Source: a virus (taxonomy: Duplodnaviria; Caudoviricetes). From it: a stretch of DNA of 33,608 nucleotides. How positions within the stretch are numbered: the first letter of the stretch is position 1; each line of letters begins with the position of its first letter. Location: positions 1 to 33,608 of the IMG/VR virus record IMGVR_UViG_3300042807_000483. The stretch is one strand, 5' to 3'. Under the pieces are notes generated by a model. It worked only from the letters and a program-made list of their open reading frames with translations, searched no databases and had not been told where the DNA came from. The translations under genes and the position numbers were made by a program. Below are positions 3,459 through 31,984 of this stretch, piece after piece.

Positions 3459-3487
3459 TGTCGTCCTTTCGTTGTGGTCGTCCTCTG

Positions 3488-3516
3488 ATGATACTAAAAA
3501 ATATTGATATTGTCAA
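3488..3516 (-). promoter_or_regulatory. SigA/sigma70-type promoter for the vWA gene
   Basis: TTGACA (3511-3516) - 17 nt - TATCAT (3488-3493) on the minus strand. Confidence 0.85.
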
Positions 3517-3524
3517 GCTAGATA

Positions 3525-3558
3525 CTGAGGAGGGAGGGGACGACTCCTCCCCCCTCAG
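3525..3558 (-). terminator. GC-rich hairpin after the AAA+ ATPase gene (probable terminator)
   Basis: CTGAGGAGGGAGG...CCTCCCCCCTCAG imperfect inverted repeat; weak U tail. Confidence 0.5.
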
Positions 3559-3563
3559 AGTTT

Positions 3564-8578: not shown

Positions 8579-8908
8579 CTAGAGTTGAGTAATGACATGC
8601 TCAGCGACTGCCATTTGAATGACAGGACGAGGCTGTGCCCCAACGATTCTTTTTACAAGGGAGCCGTTGACATAAAGAATCATGGTCGGGATTCCCTGAA
8701 CCTTCAGCTCTTCGACGAGCTCAGGATTGGAATCAGCATCAACTTTTGCAACTAACAACTTGTCGCCAAACTCATCAGAGACTGAGTTGAGAATTGGGTT
8801 CATCCGTTTGCATGGGCCACACCACTCGGCCCAGACATCGACAAGAACTACACCGTTGCGGTCTAGAACTTCCGATTGAAAATTTTCTGACGTTACATCT
8901 TTTATCAT
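8579..8908 (-). CDS. trxA: Thioredoxin
   Basis: WAEWCGPCK active site, cis-Pro GIPT, 109 aa. Confidence 0.95.
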   Translation of the reverse strand: MIKDVTSENFQSEVLDRNGVVLVDVWAEWCGPCKRMNPILNSVSDEFGDKLLVAKVDADSNPELVEELKVQGIPTMILYVNGSLVKRIVGAQPRPVIQMAVAEHVITQL

Positions 8909-8912
8909 GGCG

Positions 8913-9560
8913 TCAGTCTACAACAACATCAAGTCCTTTAGGGTAGGGTTTTACTTCGTACTTAAGTTTTTCAAGTAGCTCACGTTTACGCCATTTGTTT
9001 CCGCGAAACATTACATACCTATGTTTCCGAGGACGCTCGTGTCTTTCCATCCGTTCACCATAAAAAGCTTTTGCACCGTTGACTCCACCATGCTCGTCAA
9101 ACAAGTGACGAGAGTGTGACCCAGACTTACCGTCTAATCTCCACTCAACATGTCTGTCCGACATTCCCGTGTATAACCAGTTGGTCGCTTGGTACACCAC
9201 CCCAACATGGCCAGCACCAATCTCGGCATACGAGACAACAATGTCTTTATCCGCAGGCAACATCCGAAGCGACTGACCGATAAGAAACGATTCCGCATTC
9301 CTAGGTGTCACATCAGCAATCCACAGCCGAGTCAACTCAATGACATTAACGGCTTCTTCTGGGCCACAGACTCCTTTGCATAGCGAATGCGATGCGGGTT
9401 TTCCATAGATAATACATCCGACCATCTCCTCGGTCACAGAATCAAATAATCCGAAGGTGTACATGGAGGGTGCCCGACGGTGGAGGTAGTGAAACTCCAC
9501 TACCATCTCTGTCGCTACTCGAGAAGAAATCTCTCGAACCACGTACTTCTCTAATGCCAA
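8913..9560 (-). CDS. Mom-family GNAT (putative DNA adenine-modifying acyltransferase)
   Basis: HYLHR, IELTRLW, RNAESFLIG, VSYAE, GHVGVVYQATNWLYTG, KHRY motifs characteristic of Mu Mom-like proteins. Confidence 0.8.
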   Translation of the reverse strand: MALEKYVVREISSRVATEMVVEFHYLHRRAPSMYTFGLFDSVTEEMVGCIIYGKPASHSLCKGVCGPEEAVNVIELTRLWIADVTPRNAESFLIGQSLRMLPADKDIVVSYAEIGAGHVGVVYQATNWLYTGMSDRHVEWRLDGKSGSHSRHLFDEHGGVNGAKAFYGERMERHERPRKHRYVMFRGNKWRKRELLEKLKYEVKPYPKGLDVVVD

Positions 9561-14704: not shown

Positions 14705-14909
14705 CATTCCAGAAAACACACTAATAGCGCTTGAAGCCTCGGAAATCCACGACGGTTGGTCAGCAGCGGTTCTCTCCAGTGGAGACATCATCAACCGATG
14801 GGACCCCGATACAGAGTCAGAGCAACATCTTCTTACCGTCAAGCTGATTCAAGTTTTTGTTGAGCAGATGGCATCTAAGGGCTTCGAAGAAATTCCAGAG
14901 ACGACTTAG
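14694..14909 (+). CDS. Hypothetical protein
   Basis: 71 aa; converges on whiB with a 4-nt stop overlap. Confidence 0.55.
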   Translation: MIADIPENTLIALEASEIHDGWSAAVLSSGDIINRWDPDTESEQHLLTVKLIQVFVEQMASKGFEEIPETT

Positions 14910-15220
14910 AAGTCTCTGTATAAATTCCAAGGACGTAGACCTCTGCGCTTCATTGAAGCTCGCTCACGCTCGGTTGTTCCGCCCCACACACCCATCTCGT
15001 TGTTTTTGACTGCCCACTCTAGGCACTCAGCAACATAAGGGCATTGCCTACATAAACTTTTTGCCTCTGCCGTACTTTCCCTGAACTCAGGCTCACTGGG
15101 CTCAACAAAGAATAGTTCTACATTTTTTCCTTGACAAGATGGTGGTCCCTTCTTAGGGTCTGCAAAATCAGGATACTCCCAAGACTCAGCGCCTTTTCCG
15201 AAGTAGCTTCCACTGGACAC
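14906..15220 (-). CDS. whiB: WhiB-family Fe-S transcriptional regulator
   Basis: C...FF...AKSLCRQCPYVAEC...GVWGGTTERER. Confidence 0.93.
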   Translation of the reverse strand: MSSGSYFGKGAESWEYPDFADPKKGPPSCQGKNVELFFVEPSEPEFRESTAEAKSLCRQCPYVAECLEWAVKNNEMGVWGGTTERERASMKRRGLRPWNLYRDF

Positions 15221-15555
15221 TAAGTCACCTTTTTCTTGTTTCGGCTGTTTACTCCCCCGACTAGATGAATGAGGGGGATAAATACTTTTCCTGTCTTAAT
15301 AATATCTCTACGTTGCCTCTGACTTGTCCCGCCCCACACCCCCACTAAATTTTCTTCAATTGCATAAGTGAGGCACTTCAGTTGGTATGGGCACGTGTAG
15401 CAAACCTTTTTTGCCTCGTTTGTTATGTACGTGGCGTTTACTGGATACTCGTCATCCAAGTCCGCAAAGAACATGTCTGGTGGGTAGTGAACACAAGGGG
15501 GTTCGCCCTCTTCTGAGAAGTCTGGGTAGTTATTGAATTCTATGTTGATGTCCAC
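15220..15555 (-). CDS. whiB: WhiB-family Fe-S transcriptional regulator (second copy)
   Basis: C...MFF...AKKVCYTCPYQLKC...GVWGGTSQRQR. Confidence 0.93.
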   Translation of the reverse strand: MDINIEFNNYPDFSEEGEPPCVHYPPDMFFADLDDEYPVNATYITNEAKKVCYTCPYQLKCLTYAIEENLVGVWGGTSQRQRRDIIKTGKVFIPLIHLVGGVNSRNKKKVT

Positions 15556-16542: not shown

Positions 16543-16770
16543 ATGGCCCTAACCACTGTGCAGTCCGAAACTCAATACCCCTCTGACTATCTAGAGCTTT
16601 CTGAGTTCCACAATTGCGACCAGTGCCCATCTCAGGCATACGTTCAAGTCTTCTTCGAAACGGGCTTCCTTCTCTTCTGCGCACACCACTTTGTTAAGAG
16701 CCAAGGGAACATACAAGCATCAGCCAAGTACATTAACGACCGCCGAGATTTACTCGAGCGCAGTAAATAA
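16543..16770 (+). CDS. Small actinobacterial-type zinc-finger protein
   Basis: CDQCPSQAYV...LLFCAHH; leaderless (TAAAAT-N6-ATG). Confidence 0.8.
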   Translation: MALTTVQSETQYPSDYLELSEFHNCDQCPSQAYVQVFFETGFLLFCAHHFVKSQGNIQASAKYINDRRDLLERSK

Positions 16771-16877: not shown

Positions 16878-16938
16878 ATAAAAAATGTTATAGAACAAAT
16901 AATCCGTCTGCTAGACTAGAGTTTCTTCGACCCCAATA

Positions 16939-16971
16939 GGCCAAGATTCTGCGGTTTCTTGGCCCATTTTT
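16939..16971 (+). terminator. Terminator/attenuator-like hairpin in the nrd operon leader
   Basis: GGCCAAGA/TCTTGGCC stem followed by CATTTTT; extended -10 TGcTAGACT at 16909-16917. Confidence 0.45.
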
Positions 16972-16999
16972 ATCTTATTTCCGAGAAAGGAACCCCAGC

Positions 17000-17107
17000 A
17001 TGTCCACCTCCACCACCACCTCTTTTAGTAGCTCTGTTGATGTTGTCGACGGAATTGTTTGCCCCGTTGACCCCATGGAGCTTTTAAACTGCGAATCTTG
17101 TCAGTAG
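17000..17107 (+). CDS. 35-aa peptide resembling the C-terminal redox tail of class I RNR alpha subunits (not in ORF track)
   Basis: MSTSTTTSFSSSVDVVDGIVCPVDPMELLNCESCQ*; AGAAAGGA RBS at 16984-16991; terminal CxxCQ. Confidence 0.8.
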   Translation: MSTSTTTSFSSSVDVVDGIVCPVDPMELLNCESCQ

Positions 17108-17125
17108 TTTAAGAGGGTTAGGGGG

Positions 17126-18091
17126 GTGTCTAAGGTTTGGGGAGTTGTTCCAGAGACGTTAGTTCTCACTGAAAAGGGATATGAAACAATCTTGTCCCTA
17201 GAGGGCAAACCAACAAAAATTTGGAATGGCTACACTTTCGAGGAAGCAATTGCAATTAAGGCGGGCTCAGACACCCCCATAGTAAAACTTACAACTGAAA
17301 ACACACTGGAACTTTTGTGCTCAAGTAACTCTCTTGTATATCTTCAAAAAGGAAAAACACTTTCTGAGATAGAAACCAAGGAAGTTGGGGAACTGACTAG
17401 TGACCACAAAATATTGAGAGTTCCTAGTTGTCCTATCTCGGAGGGTGGTCAGGAGAATTTTCCCTTTGCCTATAGCCACGGTTTCTACTCAGGCTCCGAA
17501 AGGTACTGGCGCTCAAGACTAAAAGTCTCTCGAGCATCTATCTTTGGAGTTCGTAGGACAGCTTTACCAGAGCTAGCGCTTGACACAGAAAAAACCACAT
17601 CTACTTCACTGGTCTACAACAAAAGTCTCCCTCGAGACTTCGAAGTACCACTAGACCCAAAGTACAGTGTAGAAACAAAGCTCGAGTGGCTCGCGGGTCT
17701 ATTTGACTCAGGTCTTTTAAAAAGAAAGACGGGCCCAACGATATGGCATCTGCACTCAAACAACGTAGATTTTTTGTACCAAGTGAAACTTCTTTTACAA
17801 ACTTTAGGAGTTGACTCTAGGCATGTGGCCAACCAAGACCACAGGTTCCAGCTCTACTCTCTAAGAATTATTGCAAGGAATATAGAAAATCTTATTGATT
17901 TAGGAATCCCAACTCTAGTGAGAAAACTAGAGCGGTCCCCAAATCTGCCAAGTATTACAGGTCCACAGTCATCTCGCTCAGCAAGAGTTGTCTTGGTAGA
18001 GGATGCACTAAGAACTTCAGATATCTACAATTTTGAAACAACAACCAGAAAGTCAGCAATCCTAAACGGAATGCTAGCTGCAATTAACTAG
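17126..18091 (+). CDS. Free-standing, degenerate intein (Hint + LAGLIDADG) of the RNR-intein type
   Basis: GVVPETLVLTEKGY...IWNG (block A), AYSHGFYSG and WLAGLFDSG (LAGLIDADG-like), LLLQTLGV (block H), DIYNF...ILNGML (block F/G). Confidence 0.8.
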   Translation: MSKVWGVVPETLVLTEKGYETILSLEGKPTKIWNGYTFEEAIAIKAGSDTPIVKLTTENTLELLCSSNSLVYLQKGKTLSEIETKEVGELTSDHKILRVPSCPISEGGQENFPFAYSHGFYSGSERYWRSRLKVSRASIFGVRRTALPELALDTEKTTSTSLVYNKSLPRDFEVPLDPKYSVETKLEWLAGLFDSGLLKRKTGPTIWHLHSNNVDFLYQVKLLLQTLGVDSRHVANQDHRFQLYSLRIIARNIENLIDLGIPTLVRKLERSPNLPSITGPQSSRSARVVLVEDALRTSDIYNFETTTRKSAILNGMLAAIN

Positions 18092-18108
18092 GAAGGTACT
18101 ACCCCATA

Positions 18109-20526
18109 ATGACTAACATTTACGTCACCAAACGAGACGGACGCTCCGAGCAATACGACGCAGATAAAATTAATCAAGCTATCGAAGACATTACTTCTGA
18201 CCTTGACCAAAATATTTCGTGGGTTACCCAGATTGCCAGTGAGCTTGAACTCACGCTTTTTGATGGCATTACCACCCAACAACTTGACGAGGCAGTTGTT
18301 CAGGTTGCCCTTCAGAACATTAAAGATGACCCCGCTTTTGACAAGGTTGCTACCCGTCTTTTCTTGAAGAGTCTCTATAAGAAGGTGTTCGGAAAATACA
18401 ACAACAAAGAACAACTAAAGGCCCTCCACGTTGAGCACTTTGAGCGGGTTATCCGTACTGGCGTTGAGCAGAAGCTCATGGATGAGCGGTTTACTATTGA
18501 CGGTCTTTTCGACTTTAAGGCTCTTTCAGAGGCACTTGAACCAGCCAACGACGAGCTGTTTAAGTACATCGGCATCGTTACCTTTATGAATCGATACGCC
18601 CTCAAGGACCGTAGTCAGAGCCCTCTCGAGGTTCCCCAGTACTTCTGGATGCGTATTGCTATGGGGCTCAGCCTCAACGAAAAGAATCCTACCGAATATG
18701 CAATCCGCTTTTATAAGAAGATGAGCGCCTTAGAATACCTCGCTGCTGGCTCCACTCTGGCTAATGCTGGAACTGCCACCCCTCAGCTTGCTAACTGCTT
18801 TGTTATGGAGATGCAGGATGACATGGAGCACATCGCAAAGACCACCCGCGATGTCATGTGGCTCACGAAGGGCACTGGTGGAATCGGTCTTTCGGTTACC
18901 AAGCTCAGGGCTCAGGGCTCCCCAATTCGCTCAAATAACACCACCTCTACGGGGCCTATTCCTTTTTTGCACACCTTAGATAGCGTCCTACGGGCTGTTA
19001 GCCGTGGTGGGAAGAAGTTCGGCGCTATGTGCTTCTACATGGAGAACTGGCACTTGGACTTCCCTGAGTTCCTTGACCTTCGTCAGAACTCTGGTGACCC
19101 TTACCGACGTACCCGCACAGCCAACACAGCAGTATGGATTTCAGACGAGTTTATGAAGCGCGTCCAGAACAATGAAGATTGGTATCTTTTTGACCCCCTC
19201 GAGGTTACCGACCTCAATGAGCTTTACGGCTCCGCCTTCTCCGAGCGCTATGCCCACTATGTCGAAGAAGCCAAGGCTGGTCATATTGAACGGTACAAAG
19301 TTATTGGCGCTAGGGAGCAGTTCAAGGCAATCTTGATTTCTCTCCAAGGAACCAGCCACCCGTGGCTGACTTGGAAAGACACCATCAATAATCGTGCGCT
19401 GAACAACAACACAGGAACGATTCACTGCTCCAACTTGTGCACAGAGATTACTCTCCCGCAGGACGCAGAGAATGTCTCGGTCTGCAACTTGGCTTCCATT
19501 AACTTGAGTAGGCACCTGAATGAAGACAACAAGAGCCTCAACTATGTAAAGCTTGCCGAAAGTGCAAAGTTGGCCGTGCGTCAGCTGGACAACCTCATCG
19601 ACATCACCCGCTCCAGTGTTCCCGAGGCAGACAACTCCAACGAGCAGAATCGCGCTATTGGTCTTGGCTACATGGGATTTACCGACATCCTTGAGAAGTT
19701 CGGTATTTCTTATGAGTCCGAGGAAGCTTATGACCTCGCTGATGTTATTACTGAGCACATTTCCTACGCAGCCATTGAGGCGAGCATTGAGCTTGCCAAG
19801 GAGCGTGGAGCCTATCCCAACTTCGAAGGCTCCCGTTGGGCTCAGGGAATGGTCCCATTTGACAGCATTGACCTTGCTGAGAAGAACCGCGAGGTTCCCA
19901 TTACGGTTAAACGTGGAAGCACTCTCGACTGGGATGTTCTACGAAAGCGTGTCAAGCAACACGGTATCCGCAATGCAACCCTGATGGCCATTGCCCCCAC
20001 CGCCTCTATCGGTTTGGTCGCTGGCACGACTCCTGGTCTTGACCCTCAGTTTGCACAGATTTTTAGCCGTGCAACCAGCTCGGGCAAGTTCCTCGAGATT
20101 AATGAGAACTTGGTTAGGGACCTCAAGGCTCTCGGATTGTGGGAGTCCCACAGTGGAGAGATTCTTCGCAGTCAGGGTGACATCCAAAGCATCGATGAAA
20201 TTCCTGACACCATCAAGGCCGTCTATAAGACGAGCTTCCAGCTCGACCCACTTGCTTTCCTGCACGTTGCAGCGAGAGCGCAGAAGTGGGTTGACCAAGC
20301 GATTTCTCGGAACATGTACCTAGAGACTAGGGACATCGATGAGATTATGGCCATCTATTCATCTGCATGGGACCTCGGTGTTAAGACCACCTACTACCTG
20401 CACATGAAGCCACGCCACACTGCCGAGCAGTCGACCGTCAAGGTCAACAAGACCGAGCAGATTTCTACAAATGACACGGCTGGAGCACCTAAAAAGGGCT
20501 TTGGTTTCGCAGTAGCTAAAAACTAA
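18109..20526 (+). CDS. nrdA: Ribonucleoside-diphosphate reductase class I alpha subunit, with ATP cone
   Basis: N-terminal VTKRDG ATP cone; LANCF, SNLCTEI, VCNLAS, AIAPTAS, KTTYY; no Cys after the YY pair. Confidence 0.97.
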   Translation: MTNIYVTKRDGRSEQYDADKINQAIEDITSDLDQNISWVTQIASELELTLFDGITTQQLDEAVVQVALQNIKDDPAFDKVATRLFLKSLYKKVFGKYNNKEQLKALHVEHFERVIRTGVEQKLMDERFTIDGLFDFKALSEALEPANDELFKYIGIVTFMNRYALKDRSQSPLEVPQYFWMRIAMGLSLNEKNPTEYAIRFYKKMSALEYLAAGSTLANAGTATPQLANCFVMEMQDDMEHIAKTTRDVMWLTKGTGGIGLSVTKLRAQGSPIRSNNTTSTGPIPFLHTLDSVLRAVSRGGKKFGAMCFYMENWHLDFPEFLDLRQNSGDPYRRTRTANTAVWISDEFMKRVQNNEDWYLFDPLEVTDLNELYGSAFSERYAHYVEEAKAGHIERYKVIGAREQFKAILISLQGTSHPWLTWKDTINNRALNNNTGTIHCSNLCTEITLPQDAENVSVCNLASINLSRHLNEDNKSLNYVKLAESAKLAVRQLDNLIDITRSSVPEADNSNEQNRAIGLGYMGFTDILEKFGISYESEEAYDLADVITEHISYAAIEASIELAKERGAYPNFEGSRWAQGMVPFDSIDLAEKNREVPITVKRGSTLDWDVLRKRVKQHGIRNATLMAIAPTASIGLVAGTTPGLDPQFAQIFSRATSSGKFLEINENLVRDLKALGLWESHSGEILRSQGDIQSIDEIPDTIKAVYKTSFQLDPLAFLHVAARAQKWVDQAISRNMYLETRDIDEIMAIYSSAWDLGVKTTYYLHMKPRHTAEQSTVKVNKTEQISTNDTAGAPKKGFGFAVAKN

Positions 20527-20552: not shown

Positions 20553-21533
20553 ATGGGAATCCTAGGAAAAGGAATCCAAGAGGGCTTGCTTCTCAAGCCA
20601 GTGCGTTACCAGTGGGCTATGGACCTCTACGACCAAGCTGTTGCTAACACCTGGTTCCCCAACGAAATTCAGTTGGGTGAAGACATCGCCGACTTCAAGA
20701 AGATGACGGACGAAGAGCGTCACGCTCTCGAGTTTCTTATGTCTTTTTTCAACCCCTCGGAACTCATCGTCAACAAGGCTCTGGCCTTTGGCGTCTACCC
20801 CTACATCAACGCTCCCGAGGCGCACCTCTACCTCGCCAAGCAGATGTGGGAAGAAGCCAACCACTGCATGAGCTTCGAGTACGTCCTTGAGACGTTCCCC
20901 GTTGACCGCGAGACGATTTACGCCCAGCACGTGGACTCTCCCGAGATTGCTCGTAAGGAAGAGTTCCAGACCAAGTTCATCAAGCGGATGACTGAAGAGA
21001 CTCTTGACATCAACACCGTTGAGGGTAAGCAGGACTTTGTCCGCAACTTGATTGCGTACAACATCATCATGGAAGGCATCTGGTTTTACTCAGGCTTCAT
21101 GGTGGCGCTTTCCTTCCGTCAGCGTAACCTGCTCCGCAACTATGCGTCTCTCATTGACTGGGTTGTCCGTGACGAGTCTCTCCACCTCAAGTTCGGCATC
21201 AATCTGATTCTGACAGTCTTGGAAGAAAACCCAGAGATTGCAACTTCTGAGTTCGTCGAGGAGGTTCGCAACATGATTATCGAGGCTGTTGAAATGGAGA
21301 TTGACTACAACAAGGCCCAGTTCCCGAAGGGCATTCTTGGTCTCAACGCCGAGTACGTTAGCCAGTACGTTAAGTACCTCGCTGACCGTCGCTTCGAAGA
21401 GCTTGGCTTCGAGCCGTACTACAACGTCACCAACCCCGCAAAGTGGATGGCAACCGCCAACGACACTCTGCAGTTGGTGAACTTCTTTGAGTCAACAAAC
21501 ACCTCGTATGAGGTCAACGCAAAGGCTAGCTAA
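20553..21533 (+). CDS. nrdB: Ribonucleotide reductase class I beta subunit with class Ic (R2c) signatures
   Basis: Ligands E70, E101xxH104, EGIWFYSGF, RDESLH; Phe108 at the radical-Tyr position; AAGGAG RBS. Confidence 0.95.
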   Translation: MGILGKGIQEGLLLKPVRYQWAMDLYDQAVANTWFPNEIQLGEDIADFKKMTDEERHALEFLMSFFNPSELIVNKALAFGVYPYINAPEAHLYLAKQMWEEANHCMSFEYVLETFPVDRETIYAQHVDSPEIARKEEFQTKFIKRMTEETLDINTVEGKQDFVRNLIAYNIIMEGIWFYSGFMVALSFRQRNLLRNYASLIDWVVRDESLHLKFGINLILTVLEENPEIATSEFVEEVRNMIIEAVEMEIDYNKAQFPKGILGLNAEYVSQYVKYLADRRFEELGFEPYYNVTNPAKWMATANDTLQLVNFFESTNTSYEVNAKAS

Positions 21534-21660: not shown

Positions 21661-22686
21661 ATGCGAAATATTGTGTTTGTAACGGATGCTTGGTACCCAC
21701 AGACTAATGGCGTTGTAACCACGATTTCCCATTTGTACGAAGAACTTTGTTCCTCAGATAAGTATCACGTTACGGTTATCCACCCCGGACTATTCGAACA
21801 AATCAATCTTTCTAATTTATATCCTGATATTTCTTTAGCTATCCCCGTCAAGCTGTGGAAGATTCTGGACTCTTTGAAATTTGATGCAATTCATATCTTT
21901 ACCGAAGGCCCATTAGGTATCTCTGCTAAGCAGTATTGCGCCGTAAGAAAAATCAGGCATACGACAAGTTTTCACACCAACTTTCCGATGCTTTTAAGCA
22001 CAATGTTTGGTATTCCCGAGGAGATTAGCTGGTCTTTGTCTGCTTTGTTTCATTCCTCCAGTTCTAAAGTTCTGGTGACAAACAAGGGTATGAAGTCTTT
22101 TCTTGTTGATAAAGGCTTTAAATCCGACTCCCTCCGCGTGTGGTCTCGGGGGGTTGACCGTTCTGATTTTCATTTTAGAGACAATGATTTCTCTGTCTCC
22201 CGTTCTCGCCCTCGAGTTATCTGCGTGAGCCGGGTCAGTAAGGAGAAGAATCTTAAGGATTTTTGTCGGTTGTCTTTGTCTGGCGAGTTTGATTGCGTTT
22301 TGGTTGGTGACGGTCCGCAGTTAAAGAAGCTAAAAAATAAGTTTCCAAAAGTAACATTTACTGGACGAGTTCCTCACGAGGAACTCTTCACCCACTACCA
22401 AGATGCTGACGTGTTCTTCTTCCCCAGCAAGTTTGATACTTTTGGTGTGGTGATGATTGAGTCTCTCGCTTGCGGAACTCCTGTTGTAGCTTTTGATGAG
22501 GTTGCGCCCAATGCTGTCATCGAGGACGGGGTAAATGGTTTTATTGTAGGGAACTCCTACACATCCCCTGAGCAGGCAATTGTTGCAGCAACATACCTCT
22601 CTCGTAAAGATTGTTATAAGTCCTCTTTAAATTTTTCGTGGGCTAATGTAGCTAACATCTTTTTAAGTACTTTGGTGGGACGGTAG
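21661..22686 (+). CDS. GT4-family (GT-B) glycosyltransferase
   Basis: TDAWYPQTNGVV, HIFTEGPLG, VSRVSKEKN, VGDGP, FPSKFDTFGVVMIESLACGTPV. Confidence 0.92.
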   Translation: MRNIVFVTDAWYPQTNGVVTTISHLYEELCSSDKYHVTVIHPGLFEQINLSNLYPDISLAIPVKLWKILDSLKFDAIHIFTEGPLGISAKQYCAVRKIRHTTSFHTNFPMLLSTMFGIPEEISWSLSALFHSSSSKVLVTNKGMKSFLVDKGFKSDSLRVWSRGVDRSDFHFRDNDFSVSRSRPRVICVSRVSKEKNLKDFCRLSLSGEFDCVLVGDGPQLKKLKNKFPKVTFTGRVPHEELFTHYQDADVFFFPSKFDTFGVVMIESLACGTPVVAFDEVAPNAVIEDGVNGFIVGNSYTSPEQAIVAATYLSRKDCYKSSLNFSWANVANIFLSTLVGR

Positions 22687-22687
22687 A

Positions 22688-23482
22688 GTGTCTTTCCTTG
22701 TTGGTATGAGCACTAGCTGTGTTTTTCCGTCTAAAACAGAGACTGCCTTTAAAGTTGCTTCTGAATTAGGCTATGACGGTATCGAGATTATGGTCACCAA
22801 AGACCCGTCTTCTCAGGATGCACGTTCTCTTAATAAGTTTTCTAAGAAGCACGGTATTCCTATTTTTTCGATTCATTCTCCGGTGTTAATGCTTTCTTCG
22901 CATGTTTTTGGGCGCAATCCTCGAGAGAAGTTAAGGCGTTCGTGTGAGTTGGCGGTTGCTGTAGGGGCGTCTACTGTTGTGGTCCATCCCCCATATTTTT
23001 GGCAACCTGTCTATGCGTTGACGTTTTCTAGTTTTGTTCGTGAGCTTTCTGCCGAGTTTGATTTAAGAATTGCTGTCGAGAACATGTTTAATCCCGAGTT
23101 TTTTGGTGTAAGTCTCCCTGTTTTTGCTCCGAGCTGGGACCCCTCTGCCCCCTCTATGGACGTTGACTATATGACGTTGGATTTTTCGCATTGTGCTTAT
23201 CAGGGCGTGAGTGGTTTAGATTTGGCTAAAAGCATGGGCGACCGTCTGCAACACATCCACTTGTGTGATGGTACCCACCACCACCAGCGTTTTCATTTGT
23301 TGGATGAGCATTTGGTTCCCGGTAGAGGCACTCAGCCCGTTGCTGAAACGTTGCAGTATCTTTCGCGTGAAGGAACATCTTTTCTTGGTTTTGTTGTTGC
23401 CGAGGTGCATACTGATTCGTATTCTAAAAAGAAACGTCGCCGTAAGCTTGTTGAGACGTTGGAGTTTGCGCGTAGGTTTTAA
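22688..23482 (+). CDS. Sugar phosphate isomerase/epimerase (xylose-isomerase-like TIM barrel)
   Basis: GYDGIEIM, SIHSP, VVVHPP, AVENM, TLDFSH, HIHLCDG, DEHLVPGRG. Confidence 0.88.
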   Translation: MSFLVGMSTSCVFPSKTETAFKVASELGYDGIEIMVTKDPSSQDARSLNKFSKKHGIPIFSIHSPVLMLSSHVFGRNPREKLRRSCELAVAVGASTVVVHPPYFWQPVYALTFSSFVRELSAEFDLRIAVENMFNPEFFGVSLPVFAPSWDPSAPSMDVDYMTLDFSHCAYQGVSGLDLAKSMGDRLQHIHLCDGTHHHQRFHLLDEHLVPGRGTQPVAETLQYLSREGTSFLGFVVAEVHTDSYSKKKRRRKLVETLEFARRF

Positions 23483-23532
23483 AGTAGCTTGGGCTTTTTT
23501 GTTTTTCCCTGTAAGACTGATAATCTATTGCT

Positions 23533-23865
23533 ATGAGTTATCAATTTAAGCACTACGGAAATAAGGACGCCTACAAGCGACTTAAAAAAGTTATTGGCAA
23601 GACGCTTGACGAGGCCTACTCCGACGGCTATAGCGATGGAGAAAATGACACAGAGCATGATTACGAAGTCGGCTTTGAGGCTGGAGTTTCCGCAGAGCGA
23701 GAACGCATTAAAACAGTCTTTGACATGAACATCCAGTGGGCTCTCGAGAGCAACAAGGGCTCTGATGTTATTTTCTTCACTAAGGCCAAGCAAATCATTG
23801 AGCCTATTGATGTTGACCTAAGCCCCGAGGCCTACCAACGCAGCCTAGAGAACGACGGTTTTTAA
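23533..23865 (+). CDS. Hypothetical protein
   Basis: 110 aa, YSDGYSDG / GFEAG repeats; leaderless. Confidence 0.7.
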   Translation: MSYQFKHYGNKDAYKRLKKVIGKTLDEAYSDGYSDGENDTEHDYEVGFEAGVSAERERIKTVFDMNIQWALESNKGSDVIFFTKAKQIIEPIDVDLSPEAYQRSLENDGF

Positions 23866-23866
23866 C

Positions 23867-24442
23867 TTGACCACACAGGACAGAATTTTAGAAGTCCCCG
23901 TCCTCCACTTGCTGGCGGAGGCAGACAAGCGTGCTCGAGAGATGCCTGATATGTTTCAAACAGTTAAACAAGGTAACCGCCTTGGTGCAAAACAGACTGG
24001 CTGTCTTGGGGAGCTTGTTGGTGAAGAATACCTGAAAAACCTAAACACTCTTTACACACCGTTTTTTACCACAGAATTTGATGTGATGGTTCACCTCCCA
24101 GAGGGCGACAAGAAGATAGAGTTTAAAACTAAAGAGCGCACGGTACCCCCTTTGCCAAAATATGAGTGCTCTGTTTACGACTACGTCAAAGACTTTCAAA
24201 ACGTGGACTACTACATGTTTATTTCTTTGTTCTCAACCGACAGCGATTCTTCAGACATTAATAGGTTTACTCGAGGTTTTATTGTTGGCTCGATTACCAA
24301 ACAGGACTTTGACAAAAAAGCTAAGTTTTGGAAAAAAGGAGACATAGACCCAACTAACGGGTGGGCTGTTAGTAGAGACACATGGAGTGTTTTTGTTTCG
24401 GAACTCTCCTCCCCAGTTTTTAGAGAAAGCGTGACGTTATGA
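23867..24442 (+). CDS. PD-(D/E)xK restriction-endonuclease-fold protein
   Basis: GCLGELVGEEYL...FDVMV...KIEFKTK pattern. Confidence 0.6.
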   Translation: MTTQDRILEVPVLHLLAEADKRAREMPDMFQTVKQGNRLGAKQTGCLGELVGEEYLKNLNTLYTPFFTTEFDVMVHLPEGDKKIEFKTKERTVPPLPKYECSVYDYVKDFQNVDYYMFISLFSTDSDSSDINRFTRGFIVGSITKQDFDKKAKFWKKGDIDPTNGWAVSRDTWSVFVSELSSPVFRESVTL

Positions 24443-25533
24443 GTATTGATGGCCCACAACCCCTACAGCGTTCTACGACTCCTCTTAAGTCCTTTGTTGA
24501 AATGGACGAAATTACTAGTAGTTTAATTTTGCCTTTTGACTACGCCTCCGAGGGTTCAGGAACCTTTTACCCGTACCTTCTTCCCGAAGACCTCCCTCAG
24601 GACTTTCAGCTTGGGGTTATTGTTGGTGCGTCTGGTACAGGCAAGTCAACTCTTCTGAAAGAATTTGGCTCTTCCGAGGAAATTGTATGGCAACCCAATA
24701 AGTCCATCGCTTCGCATTTTTCTAGTGCGGTGGAGGCTAATGAGAAGTTTTCTGCATCTGGTTTGATGAGTGTCCCCACGTGGGTTAAGCCCTACAGTGT
24801 TCTCTCTAACGGCGAGAGGTTTAGGGCAGACTTGGCGCGTTTGCTTAGGGACGGCGCTGTCATTGACGAGTTTACTTCTGTGATTGACCGAAATGTTGCC
24901 AAGGCATCCTCTACTTCTATGTCTAAGTACATCCGAAGAAATAACGTTAAGGGTGTCGTTCTTGCTACAGTCCACAGGGATATTCTTGAGTTTTTGGACC
25001 CCGACTGGATTATTGACACCGACAAAGGGCAGTGGACTAACGGGAGGTGGCTTCATCGACCAGAACTGGTTATCGACGTATATCCTGCCCACAACAGCAT
25101 TTGGAGCTACTTCGCTCCGCACCACTATCTCTCCGAACAAATCAACAAAGCCTCACACAGCTACGTGGCAGTTTGGGAGGGACGCTTAGTCGGTTTTGCT
25201 TCGGCTATGACGTACCCATCTGGCACAGTAAAGAATGCTTGGCGAGAGCACCGTTTAGTTGTTCACCCTGACTTTCAGGGTTTTGGGTTTGGACCCCGTA
25301 TTTCTGAGGTTGTTGCCCAGCACTACCTCGAACAGGGTAAGCGCTACTTTTCTAAAACTTCCCACCCCCGTTTGGGGGAGTATCGTGATAATTCTCCTGT
25401 TTGGAGGGCTACATCTAAGAATCATATGAAGCGACGGGACGGAGTTAACAATGCTCAGAAGCTCCGATGGGGCATGAACCACGAGCGTTGGTCTTACAGT
25501 CACGAATATGTCGGAAGTATAATAGAACTTTAA
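24439..25533 (+). CDS. ABC-type ATPase fused to a C-terminal GNAT acetyltransferase
   Basis: Walker A GASGTGKST, signature LSNGE, Walker B VIDEF, H-loop TVH; GNAT part HHYL...RLVVHPDFQGFGFG. Confidence 0.88.
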   Translation: MSIDGPQPLQRSTTPLKSFVEMDEITSSLILPFDYASEGSGTFYPYLLPEDLPQDFQLGVIVGASGTGKSTLLKEFGSSEEIVWQPNKSIASHFSSAVEANEKFSASGLMSVPTWVKPYSVLSNGERFRADLARLLRDGAVIDEFTSVIDRNVAKASSTSMSKYIRRNNVKGVVLATVHRDILEFLDPDWIIDTDKGQWTNGRWLHRPELVIDVYPAHNSIWSYFAPHHYLSEQINKASHSYVAVWEGRLVGFASAMTYPSGTVKNAWREHRLVVHPDFQGFGFGPRISEVVAQHYLEQGKRYFSKTSHPRLGEYRDNSPVWRATSKNHMKRRDGVNNAQKLRWGMNHERWSYSHEYVGSIIEL

Positions 25534-25573
25534 GCACTTAATAACCTCTACAAAAGTAAAGTATTATTAGTGT

Positions 25574-26239
25574 ATGCACATTGGCACTAGAGTACTTATT
25601 CTTGCCTCTGGTTCAGGTGAGCGCTGGGGGAATTATCTTGGCGTTCCTAAGCATCTCATTGAGATTGACGGTAAAAGACTTATAGAAAGAACCGCTCATC
25701 AGTTTGGAGAATACGCTGACGAAGTGGTCATTGTTGGACCAAAAGACCCTCGATACGGCACTAACTATGCAGTCCACTACACGCCAAAAGCAAATCTTGA
25801 GACAGAGATAGACAAGTTTCTTTCCTCAATGTTGCTGTGGGGTGACCAAAACGTTGTGCTTGTCTTCGGGGACGTCTACTTCACCGATGAGGCAGTCGAG
25901 ACAATAATGACCCACTCTGGGGACTGGACTTTCTTCTGTAGACCTAGTGGCTCGAAAATTACTGGGAAAAAATGGCGAGAAATCTATGCCTTCTTTGTTC
26001 CGCCACACAACCACCGAGTCGTTCGTGACGCTATCAAGAGCCTCTCCCTCGTGGACGTCGACGCTGGTGGTTGGGCGCTTTTTCGAAAACTAGTAACTGG
26101 AAATCACACTAAAACCAATGAAGCAGATGAAGCCATATTTGTAGCTGGGCACCACGTCGTTATTGATGACCTAACAGAAGACTTTGACTATCCCAGTGAC
26201 TATGACAACTGGTTGCCTGCAAAAAACGCACTAAAGTAA
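25574..26239 (+). CDS. Nucleotidyltransferase (NTP_transf, LicC/MobA-like)
   Basis: ILASGSGERW...PKHLIEIDGKRLIERT, FGDVYF, DFDYPSDY. Confidence 0.8.
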   Translation: MHIGTRVLILASGSGERWGNYLGVPKHLIEIDGKRLIERTAHQFGEYADEVVIVGPKDPRYGTNYAVHYTPKANLETEIDKFLSSMLLWGDQNVVLVFGDVYFTDEAVETIMTHSGDWTFFCRPSGSKITGKKWREIYAFFVPPHNHRVVRDAIKSLSLVDVDAGGWALFRKLVTGNHTKTNEADEAIFVAGHHVVIDDLTEDFDYPSDYDNWLPAKNALK

Positions 26240-26251
26240 AAAACTTATTGG

Positions 26252-26983
26252 CTACTGGTGCTCGTTACGCACGACAATAAATCCGTCTCGTATTTCGTTT
26301 AAGTACCCATTTGCCCTGTGTCGAGACATTTTGGGGTCTGTATCTGGAATCAACTCCCCCATTGGGAATTCGCTTTCGTTCTCCCACACTGGATAGAGCG
26401 CTGTTCCAACTGGCAAATCTTTAAACATTAAGTCACCTGGTCTTAGGTGTATTTCTACAATATGCTCGCCCTTTAGTTCCACATTAAAAAAATTAACTTC
26501 GGACTCTGACAACCACTCGAGCTCCAAAGGCAGTTCATAAGGAGATGGGGCCCCCCTATTAGAAAGTCTGGTCCAAGATTTAAACTTAGTTAAATTCGTA
26601 TCAGAGTAGTGTCTTCCTTGCCAGACGGAAGATACCTCCCATGTTCCATTGTCGTATCTTTGATAGTCAATTGATAGGTGGTCCCCCGAAAGCCACTCGC
26701 ACCAAAAATAACCAGGTGGTACAAAATTATGTGCCACCATCTCTTCATACATACTCGTCTCGTATGTGAACTGTGTCGCTCCAATCCCCATCCCATACAG
26801 ATTGTATATTGGACGCGAAATAAAAAGACCCTCGTGTGACGGGGGAACACCAGCAGGCCCAGCATGAAGTCCTTGACGCAAAGCAACTTCAAGCTTATTA
26901 AATGACCACCTCCACTGGGTGTGGCTATACTGTTCCCAAGCTTGATAGTCCTCCCAAATTACTACAGGGAGGGGTTTTCTCAT
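26252..26983 (-). CDS. Divergent ATP-grasp-fold protein
   Basis: NKLEVA, ISRPIYNLYGMGIGA, FWCEWLSGDHLSIDY, FNVEL...IVEIHLR. Confidence 0.6.
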   Translation of the reverse strand: MRKPLPVVIWEDYQAWEQYSHTQWRWSFNKLEVALRQGLHAGPAGVPPSHEGLFISRPIYNLYGMGIGATQFTYETSMYEEMVAHNFVPPGYFWCEWLSGDHLSIDYQRYDNGTWEVSSVWQGRHYSDTNLTKFKSWTRLSNRGAPSPYELPLELEWLSESEVNFFNVELKGEHIVEIHLRPGDLMFKDLPVGTALYPVWENESEFPMGELIPDTDPKMSRHRANGYLNEIRDGFIVVRNEHQ

Positions 26984-27030
26984 AGTATAATTTTATCTTA
27001 TATCTAAATTTCAAGAAAAAGGAATTAGAG

Positions 27031-27369
27031 TTGCCAAGAAGAAAAACCAAAAACATAACTCCCGACCTCAGTGCCGAGTGGGAAAAACTAGACAGCATTC
27101 AAATAAACGGAAGAAATGTTATACCTGGAACAGAACTAAAGATTAGCGGAGAACGAGGCAGGTTTAGATTTATCAAGTACGTCAAGACTCCCCAAGGCGC
27201 GGAGTGGATTGACGTGTGGGGTGGCCCCAAGAACTGTGAGCAATGGAGAAGCTTCACACTTGACAGAGTAAAGACGGTACACTACAAGAACCAGACCGTA
27301 CAAAACCTAGCTACGGAATATAAAGAAAAAATGACATCTAAGAAAGAAGAGCAGAGCAATGCGTTCTAA
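27031..27369 (+). CDS. Conserved actinophage hypothetical protein (SH3-like beta-rich)
   Basis: GTELKISGERGRFRF...WIDVWGG...WRSF; AAAGGA RBS. Confidence 0.7.
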   Translation: MPRRKTKNITPDLSAEWEKLDSIQINGRNVIPGTELKISGERGRFRFIKYVKTPQGAEWIDVWGGPKNCEQWRSFTLDRVKTVHYKNQTVQNLATEYKEKMTSKKEEQSNAF

Positions 27370-27475
27370 GTTAGGTTATCCTTGCTATAGACACCGTACT
27401 AGGTTCAAAGGAAGCTACTGCCCCGAGTGCTACAAAGAGAGGCGCGAGCGTGAACGCCGTGGCGGAAGAATTTAA
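27359..27475 (+). CDS. 38-aa basic zinc-finger peptide (not in ORF track)
   Basis: MRSKLGYPCYRHRTRFKGSYCPECYKERRERERRGGRI*; CxxH-x8-CxxC; overlaps the upstream stop. Confidence 0.5.
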   Translation: MRSKLGYPCYRHRTRFKGSYCPECYKERRERERRGGRI

Positions 27476-27500
27476 AAACTTTTAGTTTTACAGATAAAAC

Positions 27501-28160
27501 CTAGAGCGACAATAAATACTCTTTAACGTGTTGCACTTTAGCGAGCGGGTCCAACCAAAGCTTGAATCCAGCGTCTTTTATGTTGAGAGATGCAGAATAG
27601 TCCTCACCGTAGTTGACAGAAAAGTCGACCTTGTCTAAACGTGCTTTTCGGATTAGAAACCAAGGACGAGGAACTTTTTCAAATACGCCATATCGAACGG
27701 CTAACATTCCGAATCCGATACCGTCCACCTCTACAGGCTCTTCGTCAAAGATTAAGTCTTTCCACGAAAGTGTCTTTGGAATCATATTTCCATCTAAACG
27801 CATAGCTGTAATCATTCCAGAGTTGTTGACAGGGACCATTGCCCCAACCACATCTAACTTATGATTAAGCATACGTTCAAAGGTTTGAACATCCCAGACG
27901 ATGTCGCTGTCAATCCACATTAACTTCCCGTATGTAAAAGCGCCTCCTGCAATCTCGTTAGTGTCCCAGTTATGCTCATTAGAATCTGTTGCTGTTTTCT
28001 CTCTGGCACTGGGGACGAACGAGCTAAATTTGCTAAGAAACTTATATGAGAGTCCCTGTTTATTAAGCCAAGTGGTAGTCTCCACTAAAGACTTTATATA
28101 CTCCATTTTTGCACTATTGCCAGGGGTGGCTATCACGACGTCATAATACGGAAGGCTCAT
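27501..28160 (-). CDS. GT-A fold (GT2-like) glycosyltransferase (start revised to MSLPYY...)
   Basis: VVIATP, LMWIDSDIVW (DxD), GIGFGML, GEDY, VQHVK; TATACT-N6-ATG at 28160. Confidence 0.8.
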   Translation of the reverse strand: MSLPYYDVVIATPGNSAKMEYIKSLVETTTWLNKQGLSYKFLSKFSSFVPSAREKTATDSNEHNWDTNEIAGGAFTYGKLMWIDSDIVWDVQTFERMLNHKLDVVGAMVPVNNSGMITAMRLDGNMIPKTLSWKDLIFDEEPVEVDGIGFGMLAVRYGVFEKVPRPWFLIRKARLDKVDFSVNYGEDYSASLNIKDAGFKLWLDPLAKVQHVKEYLLSL

Positions 28161-28218
28161 ACACTTAGTATAAAGCGTTTCGCTTGCAAAACTGTAGACA
28201 CGAGAGTATTGTATAGCT

Positions 28219-28500
28219 ATGAATAAAAGCACTGAAAAATTCAAGACTTGGGAAGAAGAGTTCCAACCCTCATGTCTCTACGGCTACTCGGAAGAGAACC
28301 TCTACCTGCTCGACTCCGAGCTTGACAACCACAATTTGATTTGGACTAAGTACTCGACACCAGAAGCAAGCGAAGTACTTGCGAAAGGACTGATTGACTA
28401 TGGACCCGCAGACTCCAACAACCCCAACGGAAAGTTCGTATGGCAGTGGATTGTGTGTGAAGTTCCTTGGGGAGACGACACCGAGTCTCCCATCAGCTAA
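28219..28500 (+). CDS. Hypothetical protein
   Basis: 93 aa, acidic; leaderless (TATTGT-N6-ATG). Confidence 0.7.
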   Translation: MNKSTEKFKTWEEEFQPSCLYGYSEENLYLLDSELDNHNLIWTKYSTPEASEVLAKGLIDYGPADSNNPNGKFVWQWIVCEVPWGDDTESPIS

Positions 28501-28508
28501 GTAGCTAC

Positions 28509-28580
28509 GCCCTCTTAGCTCAGAAGCAGAGCACCTGTCTTGTAAACAGGAGGTCAGGATTGCAAAACTCCTAGGGGGCC
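28509..28580 (+). tRNA. tRNA-Thr (anticodon UGU), atypical D/T loops, no encoded CCA
   Basis: Acceptor GCCCTCT/AGGGGGC, D-stem GCTC/GAGC, anticodon arm CCTGT-CTTGTAA-ACAGG, T-arm AGGAT-TGCAAAA-CTCCT. Confidence 0.8.
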
Positions 28581-28593
28581 CGAGGAGTAAATT

Positions 28594-29481
28594 ATGATTT
28601 GGTATCTACGTAAAGACTACAAGCTTGACCACGAAGCAAAGCGCGTGGTTGAAGAAGCTAAGTTAGCTGACGTTCTTTTTAAAGTTGTTGCTCCTAAAGA
28701 CTTTGATTTGGTGGTCACTCGAGATGACCGTAGAAGTATTAGGTTTAAAGCGGGCACTGTGTCTCTTCCTGACGTCGTAATCCCTAGAACTGGTAGTGGT
28801 ACGGACTCCTACGCAAGAAGTGTGCTTCGGCACCTCGAGCGTTTGCATGTTCCTGTCCTTAACAACGCTGACTCTATAGACGCATCCATGGACAAGATGT
28901 ACTCAACTCAAATTCTGAGGCAACACAATATCTCTGTTCCGCAGACCATGCTAGTTCGTTTCCCTGTAGACGCTTCTTTTGTTGAAAAAGAAATTGGGTT
29001 CCCTTGCGTTATTAAAGTTCTTAGTGGCAGCTACGGAAAAGGCATCCACCTCGTCCGCGACAAGTCTGCTCTTGAAGAGCTCATGGAGTTTGTGAGTAGC
29101 CTCAACTCTCCACTAAACATTCTTATTCAAGAGTACGTGGACTTCTCCCCTGGAGTTGACATCCGAGTCTTGGTTGTCGGTGGAAAAGTTCTTGGTGCCA
29201 TGAAGCGTAGTAGCTCTGATGGAGATTTTAGGGCAAACATTTCTCGGGGAGGTACGGGCGAGATTTACCCTCTTAACGACCAGCTGGTTTTTATTGCGAC
29301 AGAAACCGCTAAAGTTCTCAACCTAGACATCGCTGGTGTTGACCTTTTAATTGATGAGAACGGTTATAAAGTCTGCGAAGCAAACTCTGCCCCTGGGTTT
29401 AAAGGTTTTGAGGAATACTGCGGAGTAAATGTCGCTAAAGAAATTTTAAACTACGCCATCTTTAAGTCAAATAAAGTCTAG
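28594..29481 (+). CDS. rimK: RimK-family ATP-grasp alpha-L-glutamate ligase
   Basis: PRTGS, DKMYS, GFPCVIKVLSGSYGKG, QEYV, DIRVLVVG, FRANISRGG, GVDLL, CEANSAPG. Confidence 0.92.
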   Translation: MIWYLRKDYKLDHEAKRVVEEAKLADVLFKVVAPKDFDLVVTRDDRRSIRFKAGTVSLPDVVIPRTGSGTDSYARSVLRHLERLHVPVLNNADSIDASMDKMYSTQILRQHNISVPQTMLVRFPVDASFVEKEIGFPCVIKVLSGSYGKGIHLVRDKSALEELMEFVSSLNSPLNILIQEYVDFSPGVDIRVLVVGGKVLGAMKRSSSDGDFRANISRGGTGEIYPLNDQLVFIATETAKVLNLDIAGVDLLIDENGYKVCEANSAPGFKGFEEYCGVNVAKEILNYAIFKSNKV

Positions 29482-29493
29482 TAGACTTCTACT

Positions 29494-30282
29494 GTGGAGC
29501 AGATAAAAACTACGACGTACAAGAACGTACAAGAGCTTGTCGAAGAAATAGCCTCCTCAACTAACTCCTACCACAAAACTCATTTAAAGCGTTATGGTAG
29601 GACTCTTAGCGTTCTCCTCGACCAGAAGCCTCTAAAAGGCAAGCTCCTCGAGATAGGAACTAGCGGAGTCTACCCTCTAGTCCTACAAGAGCTCGTGCCA
29701 GACCTCCAAGTCCACGTCACCGACTACGACCTTACCAAGGCTCCTAAGGGCTCTATGAGCGTTTCCTCGGGCGAGAGGTCCCGTAAGGTTCCCGTCTATC
29801 GTCTTAATATCGAGACAACCCCCTTGCCCGTCGAGAACGAGACTTTTGATTACGTTATCTGCGGAGAGGTTATCGAGCACCTAGAGCAAGACCCGATGTT
29901 TATGATGTCAGAAATTAATCGGGTACTTAAGCCCAACGGAACTCTTGTTCTTACAACTCCTAATATTGCAAGCGCACGAGGTATAGTTCGAATACTTAAA
30001 GGTTATGAGCCGTACTTTTACATGCAGTATCGCAATGCGGGAACCCTAGACCGCCACAACTACGAATACAGCGTTCACTCTATCTCCGAGGTAATGAAGG
30101 CTAGCGGGTTTAGTGGCTCTGTCTGGACTGAAGATAACTTTACCGAGCAGTCTGTCTTAGATGTAGAGGCTCTTCAAAAAATAGGCCACCCTCTCACTCA
30201 CATTGGGGACAATATTTTCTCCGTTGGAAAAAAGATTGGGCCAGTTGTTCACCGATATCCAGTAGGAATCTACTCCGACTGA
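29494..30282 (+). CDS. Class I SAM-dependent methyltransferase
   Basis: LLEIGT, FDYVICGEVIEHL, RVLKPNGTLVLTTPN. Confidence 0.88.
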   Translation: MEQIKTTTYKNVQELVEEIASSTNSYHKTHLKRYGRTLSVLLDQKPLKGKLLEIGTSGVYPLVLQELVPDLQVHVTDYDLTKAPKGSMSVSSGERSRKVPVYRLNIETTPLPVENETFDYVICGEVIEHLEQDPMFMMSEINRVLKPNGTLVLTTPNIASARGIVRILKGYEPYFYMQYRNAGTLDRHNYEYSVHSISEVMKASGFSGSVWTEDNFTEQSVLDVEALQKIGHPLTHIGDNIFSVGKKIGPVVHRYPVGIYSD

Positions 30283-30375
30283 AGTGTTCACACTACATAA
30301 TCTAGAACATTTGCTCTTCAGATAAAATAGGTGTACAAGTACATACCTATGACCACCAGGTCAGTAAGGAGTTGA

Positions 30376-30432
30376 ATGATTCAAATGTTCAATCGAAATC
30401 ATAGAGAAATGGTTTATTACTGGATTAACTAA
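30376..30432 (+). CDS. 18-aa peptide MIQMFNRNHREMVYYWIN (not in ORF track)
   Basis: TAAGGAG RBS 4 nt upstream; lies in its own intergenic unit ending in a terminator. Confidence 0.4.
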   Translation: MIQMFNRNHREMVYYWIN

Positions 30433-30450
30433 GGTGGTGGTCCAACATCT

Positions 30451-30497
30451 ACCAAAACGCTCTCCTGAATATATTGGCAGGGGGGCGTTTTTGGTTT
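30451..30497 (+). terminator. Intrinsic terminator
   Basis: AAAACGCTCTCCTG ... CAGGGGGGCGTTTT stem with T-rich tail. Confidence 0.75.
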
Positions 30498-30520
30498 GTA
30501 TAAAAAGCTTTTATATAACG

Positions 30521-30561
30521 TAAATACCCCCCGCAATCAGATTGACTACGGGGGGATTTAT
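30521..30561 (-). terminator. Intrinsic terminator (minus strand or bidirectional)
   Basis: TAAATACCCCCCG ... CGGGGGGATTTA inverted repeat. Confidence 0.7.
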
Positions 30562-30621
30562 TTTACGGATTAACCACTATCCACCTAGAAATAATAATAC
30601 ACTAAAAACTTCTAGTATGTA

Positions 30622-31590: not shown

Positions 31591-31751
31591 TTTATTGCCT
31601 CTCGAGTCGTCCAAAGAACATTTGCCTCTGACACTAGGTGCCCGAAGTGGTAGCCGGTTGCTTCCGCGCTCTTTGCCGTGGTTCGATTTTTAGTTATAAA
31701 CAGTCTCTATAGTTTACCCTAGTAAGGTACCTAACTTGACATAGTGTGCGG

Positions 31752-31949
31752 TTATTTAACAAAGCCGTTCTTTACCATCACAGAAGTCTGATTCTTGAGA
31801 GCTCGAGGCTCTGATGGCGTAGAACTAAAAAACATTACCTGTCCATTAGGTGCTCGATAACGTAGGTGCCCACCCCTAGAGTGGTCAACAACCCATCCTT
31901 GAGCAATTGCTTTTGCTGCCAATTGTTTGGCTTCTTTTCGTGTGGTCAT
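31752..31949 (-). CDS. hicA: HicA-like mRNA interferase (dsRBD-like fold), no adjacent hicB
   Basis: GWVVDHSRGGHLRYRAPNG...SSTPS; 65 aa, basic. Confidence 0.65.
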   Translation of the reverse strand: MTTRKEAKQLAAKAIAQGWVVDHSRGGHLRYRAPNGQVMFFSSTPSEPRALKNQTSVMVKNGFVK

Positions 31950-31955
31950 TCCTCG

Positions 31956-31984
31956 AGGGTACTAAAAAAAGCTATATCTGTCAA
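31956..31984 (-). promoter_or_regulatory. SigA-type promoter giving a leaderless hicA mRNA
   Basis: TTGACA (31979-31984) - 17 nt - TACCCT (31956-31961), 6 nt before the ATG. Confidence 0.75.

Follow-up and report, generated by a model that had tools for sequence, protein, structure and literature searches.

Class I ribonucleotide reductases (RNRs) reduce the disulfide of their active site with a Cys pair on the C-terminal tail of the large subunit, and thioredoxins reduce the tail (PMC11903788). In the following we describe a stretch of viral DNA of 33,608 nucleotides (positions 1 to 33,608 of IMG/VR record IMGVR_UViG_3300042807_000483; 'the window'), a linear virus record that is ∼25% complete, in which the class I large subunit NrdA has no Cys pair at its end and a gene of its own encodes a 35-residue peptide that carries one. 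The peptide is a homologue of the NrdA tail and is under purifying selection. Judging from the sequence comparisons, it probably serves as a free dithiol shuttle, of 21–70 residues across the family, which would act in trans to re-reduce an RNR of class Ic type.

By analogy, the closest precedent would be the split class II RNR of P. aeruginosa, NrdJa/NrdJb, in which the catalytic chain has no Cys pair and a second gene supplies one in trans on the separate NrdJb chain, which is required in vivo (PMC4520616); the present enzyme instead belongs to class I (Ic type), and its partner is a short peptide of no known family. The ordinary class I tail (C695/C698 in B. subtilis, mostly CXXC; PMC11903788, PMC9669993) is the same element with presumably the same chemistry, and at 11 of 80 loci from this NrdA clade it is fused, whereas here it is a separate gene that is mobile, often present in several copies per genome and sometimes unlinked and preceded by NrdR boxes. 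In eukaryotic R1 the tail serves the active site of the other R1 chain, and thioredoxins and glutaredoxins act through it (PMC4078304), but that tail is still tethered to the dimer. The NrdA-a/NrdA-b system also makes a class I large subunit from two genes, with the endonuclease gene mobE between them, but its split cuts the catalytic core and was caused by endonuclease insertion (PMC3045599). In the present case the tail alone is separate, the genes come in the opposite order, and hosts with no endonuclease nearby have the split as well. The phage of the NrdA-a/NrdA-b system is, we assume, Aeh1. No account of a separately encoded class I tail was found in the literature searched, which left most subscription papers and supplements outside its reach, and catalogues of small open reading frames (ORFs) may list such peptides unnamed; the accessible parts of RNR family surveys mention Cys-less C-termini for class II only (10.1101/2022.04.23.489257, PMC9669993, PMC4390871).

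A tail-less NrdA and its free tail

The locus contains the following features, all on the + strand.

16984..16991, +: Shine–Dalgarno-like site AGAAAGGA, 8 nucleotides 5' of the peptide ATG, with comparable sites ahead of the peptide in phages L001 and L002
17000..17107, +: gene for the free NrdA redox-tail peptide, 35 amino acids, ATG start, assigned by homology to fused tails
17126..18091, +: free-standing intein-derived ORF, 321 amino acids (HINT plus degenerate LAGLIDADG; PF14528; aligned with L001, L179 and L002)
18109..20526, +: nrdA, class I RNR large subunit, 805 amino acids (PF02867, PF00317, PF03477; PRK06539)
20491..20508, +: KKGFGF basic-aromatic motif at the NrdA end just ahead of the split point, a candidate docking site for the acidic peptide
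20553..21533, +: nrdB, small subunit with the sequence signature of class Ic (aligned to 1syy and 2ani)

The window NrdA comprises a barrel domain, an all-alpha domain and one ATP cone, and scores 1492 bits against the NCBIfam model PRK06539 (cut-off 988), with the match ending at model position 788 of 822. A preliminary description of this DNA had NrdA retaining its active-site residues but ending without a Cys, and alignment bears this out: C230, N442, C444, E446, C459 and Y762–Y763 align with human R1 and with P. aeruginosa 5im3, the nearest solved relative (we have assumed the correspondence to E. coli numbering). Five Cys residues are present in total (230, 308, 440, 444 and 459) and the last 346 residues are Cys-free; the canonical class I architecture has a Cys pair on the chain's own C-terminal tail, and here there is no Cys past 459. 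Membership of class II is not indicated either, with NrdJ models scoring below their cut-off and nrdB directly next, starting 26 nucleotides after nrdA. A Cys-less end is seen in all 120 of the nearest NrdA proteins listed, which rules out an assembly error as its cause. In the window NrdB, Phe occupies the site of the radical Tyr and Glu that of the first metal ligand when aligned to 1syy, and 2ani has Tyr at the former site; we take these entries to be C. trachomatis R2 and its F127Y variant, respectively. The window phage thus likely encodes an Mn/Fe (class Ic) RNR.

The ORF and ribosome-binding site that had been pointed out upstream stand, and the encoded peptide ends in a CxxC (C31/C34), has a third Cys (C21) and carries a net charge of −5. 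The third Cys is optional, being present in 38 of 146 distinct phage variants, and the Ser/Thr-rich start that had been described as a feature of the peptide is not conserved, the L001 peptide beginning differently. Its proposed similarity to NrdA tails is confirmed, with 62% identity to the fused tail of Actinotalea (alignment A1). The terminal motif P-x-D-P-x5-C-x-x-C-[QE]-stop did not occur in 200 shuffled windows, and over the last 25 codons the window peptide differs from that of its sister phage L001 by nine synonymous changes and one non-synonymous change (binomial p about 1e-5). Free peptide genes range from 21 to 70 codons across the family. Searches of the Pfam, NCBIfam and PHROG libraries, the PDB and the ESM Atlas gave no family or name for the peptide, its exact sequence was absent from the protein collection searched, and the gene is unannotated in the cultured phages phiPsal1, CMP1 and CN1A that carry it. 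A predicted complex of NrdA (residues 100–805) with the peptide scored 0.31 against a mark of 0.32.

A [KR]..GF[GA] motif lies just before the split point in 67/67 split and 11/11 fused NrdAs and in 120/120 of the nearest proteins listed. The split NrdAs have basic ends (mean charge +2.9 over the last 20 residues) and the peptides are acidic (mean −4.1); we offer only as a suggestion that the two form a docking pair.

We compared 80 genome loci, the best 80 of 594 confirmed nearest-NrdA matches from a scan that ended early. Complete tail-less ends were found at 65, the motif was fused to NrdA at 11, three were cut by contig ends and one was ambiguous. (L037, which seems fused only via a single-base shift, was excluded from counts and trees; L023, L041 and L044 stop at contig edges, and L005, L010, L016, L017 and L060 were also excluded from the tree.) A free peptide gene lies within the fetched DNA at 62 of the 65 tail-less loci; at L055 the contig ends inside the peptide gene and for L080 the peptide is on another contig, so that 64/65 tail-less relatives have the peptide and the absence of such an ORF from tail-less homologues, a possible objection, does not arise. 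In the Saccharibacteria loci L048–L090 the peptide is extended at its N terminus by a conserved, helical-looking stretch of ∼35 residues that the actinobacterial copies do not have and that may serve in dimerisation or docking. Searching for longer proteins with this peptide gave one unnamed match of 119 residues, which is weak evidence. At some Saccharibacteria loci (L055, L068 and L088) nrdA and the peptide are also separated by a short ORF rich in Cys.

The suspected co-occurrence of tail-less nrdA with the small ORF proved to be near-perfect in whole genomes, the samples being related genomes of which many are incomplete. Among 161 Microbacteriaceae genomes (the family of G001), the peptide is found in 74/74 with this NrdA and in 2/87 without it (Fisher p 3e-44, the genomes being non-independent), mostly with 2–5 profile matches per NrdA-bearing genome. 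In 121 genomes of Saccharimonadales, the Saccharibacteria order of G002, NrdA and the peptide occur in the same three, and in 301 actinomycetes (the class of G003) NrdA and the peptide motif occur in the same 14; 12 of these 14 have a single match, in the NrdA frame (two verified by translation), one has the match in a partial second copy and one has it free. A fused tail is accompanied by no free copy, a split NrdA by a free copy, and the absence of such an NrdA almost always by the absence of any copy. In the five host genomes tested (5/5) there is no PF02867 gene other than that of the tail-less NrdA, and therefore no tailed paralogue could lend its tail in these hosts.

Unlinked, phage and plasmid copies

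Some copies of the peptide gene in hosts lie away from nrdA, and their upstream regions were scanned for NrdR boxes with a matrix trained solely on the box pairs ahead of 16 host nrdA genes. Of 21 unlinked copies, 13 have tandem NrdR-type boxes ahead of them, with scores higher than in any of 837 background windows. With a published NrdR pattern (PMC13584703) the figures are 9/22 for unlinked copies (one via a different pair), 4/401 for background and 13/17 for nrdA promoters. The boxes are two 16-bp elements at helix-phase spacing, with a linker of mostly 17 bp compared with the usual 15–16 bp. Several boxed copies precede hadA/hadB-like dehydratase and murB genes, and the boxes remain with the peptide where the neighbouring genes change; five of the eight unboxed copies adjoin integrase, HTH, CHAP or LPD29 genes. 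Judged by these boxes, regulation ties the unlinked copies to RNR, and the several copies, together with the NrdR-boxed stand-alone host copy, would fit an independently set stoichiometry, as had been proposed. Phages L001 and L002 have weak NrdR box pairs, detected by the matrix only. Positions 16899–16947 of the window are homologous to the weak L001 pair, which has decayed in the window phage.

Viral matches to the peptide number in the hundreds: an estimated 570 and 810 stored IMG/VR stretches match two DNA patterns for it. Only one contig, that of L002, has nrdA nearby among 175 fetched loci (99 with wide flanks, some of them duplicates). When 34 viral records, picked by length and including two already known to hold nrdA, were searched whole, PF02867 was found in those two only and in 0/15 of the records at least 90% complete. 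The cultured phages phiPsal1, CMP1 and CN1A likewise have the peptide and no RNR large subunit. Plasmids gave 19 matches, all from Microbacteriaceae genera, as are five of six cultured-phage records with the peptide. Phage Pan2, deposited with a cyanobacterial host, also has it (L290, 7996–8079) and departs from this host pattern, which would mean a mislabelled host or a wider range of the family. Phages L179 (6001–8077) and L200 have the peptide and nrdB with no nrdA between, and may complement the large subunit of the host. In codons outside the search motif the phage copies have a non-synonymous divergence (pN) of 0.20 and a synonymous divergence (pS) of 0.52, over 531 close pairs that are not independent. 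A leaderless promoter before the phage copies was also considered (14/139 compared with 8.4 ± 2.9 in shuffles); the −15 peak is the end of the terminase frame, and such a promoter was rejected as a general feature.

Proposed mechanism and alternatives

Turnover of NrdA would leave an active-site disulfide, as is established for class I RNRs. C31/C34 of the peptide would enter the active site, reduce the C230–C459 disulfide and leave in the oxidised form, to be recharged by a thioredoxin-type protein of the phage or host; more speculatively, the acidic peptide would be held near the enzyme by the [KR]..GFG motif at the NrdA end. We read the peptide as a free dithiol shuttle because of the tail chemistry of class I RNRs, the use of the partner chain in eukaryotes and the precedent of a separate NrdJb-type chain. 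With the part free, hosts could keep extra NrdR-controlled copies, and phages and plasmids that have no RNR could carry the peptide to support host deoxyribonucleotide (dNTP) synthesis during replication. The detached tail may then amount to a diffusible, exchangeable third component of class I RNR with its own NrdR-controlled gene in hosts, the ∼75-bp gene being used by RNR-less phages and plasmids to drive host recharging outside NrdR control and so to raise the dNTP supply for their own replication; we regard this wider proposal as evenly balanced between right and wrong.

Tethering and disorder of the tail make the recharging half-cycle of RNR hard to study (PMC11903788). In a class I enzyme whose tail is naturally a separate peptide, this step would be open to titration, trapping and structure determination with a synthetic 21–35-mer. 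If the shuttle reading is true, it names a probably essential gene, often missed by annotation, in Microbacteriaceae and some Saccharibacteria, and, in phages, a candidate auxiliary metabolic gene that ranks among the smallest.

Several points weigh against the shuttle and its use by phages. Whereas NrdJb has a folded domain for docking, a peptide of 21–35 residues has none, and being untethered it forgoes a high local concentration. In vitro, tail-less RNR is reduced directly by small dithiols (PMC4520616, PMC4078304), making another route chemically possible. The production of the peptide, its binding to NrdA and its activity are predictions from the sequence. Among hosts, the two Microbacteriaceae genomes noted above have the peptide with no match to this NrdA, and L060 has a tail-less nrdA that is not followed by nrdB, in a genome where the peptide has no match. 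(L060 is a Cutibacterium metagenome-assembled genome whose close relatives have fused tails; its nrdA is probably a truncated relic.) The unlinked copies scanned for NrdR boxes were hand-picked from the match list, and an intact NrdR pair was not found upstream of the window copy, where scores are at background. Finally, the phage copies often lie behind holin (25/96) or terminase (15/96) genes, with nucleases and others as further neighbours; the holin and terminase positions suggest late expression, a poorer fit to a role in replication.

This last placement also lends itself to a reading in which the peptide is the shuttle in hosts and its copies in RNR-less phages and plasmids are passengers, the gene being tiny and cheap to carry, or have another role such as lysis or packaging. 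We consider this possible but doubtful: the neighbours vary between phage groups, which points to repeated gain, the phage codons show selection (the pN and pS values given above), the plasmid matches and all but one of the cultured-phage records come from Microbacteriaceae genera, and L179 and L200 retain the peptide with nrdB.

It is improbable that the peptide binds the RNR system as a regulator, a competitive inhibitor or a metal-binding helper (of the Mn/Fe cofactor, for example), with a small thiol or a dedicated redoxin re-reducing NrdA, even though a CxxC can bind metal, NrdB is of the class Ic type and the phage copies occupy late-gene positions. The dithiol bypass of the tail in vitro also speaks for such a role: tail-less eukaryotic RNR mutants are active with dithiothreitol, although they are inactive with phosphines, which in mouse RNR work solely via the tail Cys (PMC4078304). 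However, the peptide is the very tail that NrdA lacks, as far as the terminal C-x-x-C-[QE], and free copies accompany NrdAs without the tail but not those that have it fused; moreover, thioredoxins and glutaredoxins are described as working via the tail (PMC4078304).

The arrangement of the genes bears on whether the shuttle stays unjoined to NrdA. In the window, L001 and L002 the peptide gene comes before nrdA, which upholds the earlier argument that frameshifting or read-through could not rejoin the two. It lies after nrdB in several Saccharibacteria, and in others the peptide frames vary relative to nrdA, mostly with in-frame stops. In G017, G073, G074 and G151 nrdA directly precedes nrdB and the sole peptide match is unlinked, in G017 (a single contig) by 35 kb. 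As some genomes hold only an unlinked copy, and many of the unlinked copies scanned are NrdR-boxed, rejoining by frameshift is not needed. At most Microbacteriaceae loci the peptide does begin in the −1 frame at the nrdA stop, with that frame open into nrdA, but the overlaps are TGATG or ATGA, of the translational-coupling type, and a slippery heptamer was found at 0/25 nrdA ends. In the window an intein-like ORF sits between peptide and nrdA, in frame with the peptide, but the first Cys is missing from this ORF, it terminates at a stop of its own, and its frame differs from that of nrdA and, in L001, from that of the peptide. With these observations set against it, covalent rejoining of the peptide to NrdA into an ordinary tail, by −1 frameshifting, read-through or intein trans-splicing, is very hard to credit.

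History and neighbourhood of the locus

The ORF at 17126–18091, which the preliminary description does not mention, shares full-length homology with the intein that occupies the active-site loop of the L002 NrdA (34% identity, E 1e-45). It differs from such RNR inteins in being free-standing, with no exteins, its own stop codon and a Gly in place of the first Cys; the set of elements that marks an active intein (first Cys/Ser, terminal Asn/Gln plus extein nucleophile, in-frame position in a host gene) is not present, and by sequence the copy is splicing-dead. The free-standing copy is intact in three phages (window 17126–18091, L001 3035–3982 and L179 6133–7083), with a pN of 0.25 and a pS of 0.75 between window and L001, and is kept in the 77-kb L179 record although nrdA was not seen there. 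The LAGLIDADG motifs are degenerate, and the protein may have been domesticated for DNA binding or may act as a free homing endonuclease. A metagenome scan with the ORF found the window's own sequence only.

In the NrdA tree the window nests with Aurantimicrobium and Alpinimonas (support 99), and L002 branches below the family. A likely history is that a host allele displaced a phage nrdA that contained the intein; the intein would have stayed behind as a free gene, the peptide being upstream by then. Since the window NrdA groups with the Aurantimicrobium/Alpinimonas enzymes, the window phage likely infects a freshwater species of Microbacteriaceae that has this split enzyme too. Two changes between split and fused are needed on the tree, in which a fused actinobacterial clade sits between two split clades, and the peptides resemble their nearest fused tails (28/28 and 28/33, with one reference only on one side). 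Two fissions of the NrdA tail are favoured on this evidence, while a single split clade is not rejected (approximately unbiased test, p-AU 0.52).

From their spacing, the peptide gene and nrdA plausibly form one operon. The thioredoxin that had been proposed to start the electron relay is a genuine gene (PF00085, TIGR01068), but it lies 8 kb off on the opposite strand. Two further features of the window are relevant.

8579..8908, −: thioredoxin (WCGPC), unlinked to the nrd genes; possible reductant of the peptide
16543..16770, +: DUF7455 gene, also the upstream neighbour of the peptide in phages L001 and L002

WhiB genes and other traits typical of actinobacterial phages are present in the window, the two WhiB genes lying in tandem at 14906–15555 (−). 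A Mom-family DNA modification gene adjoins thioredoxin (8913–9560, −). A MoxR-type AAA ATPase is followed by a 607-residue protein with a vWA-like motif near its end, recognised by eye (1635–4595, −). Behind the nrd genes, positions 21661–32724 hold a cluster of host-like sugar and modification genes: a GT4 glycosyltransferase, a TIM-barrel isomerase, an ABC-ATPase/GNAT fusion, an NTP transferase, a RimK ATP-grasp protein, a methyltransferase and a polysaccharide pyruvyl transferase.

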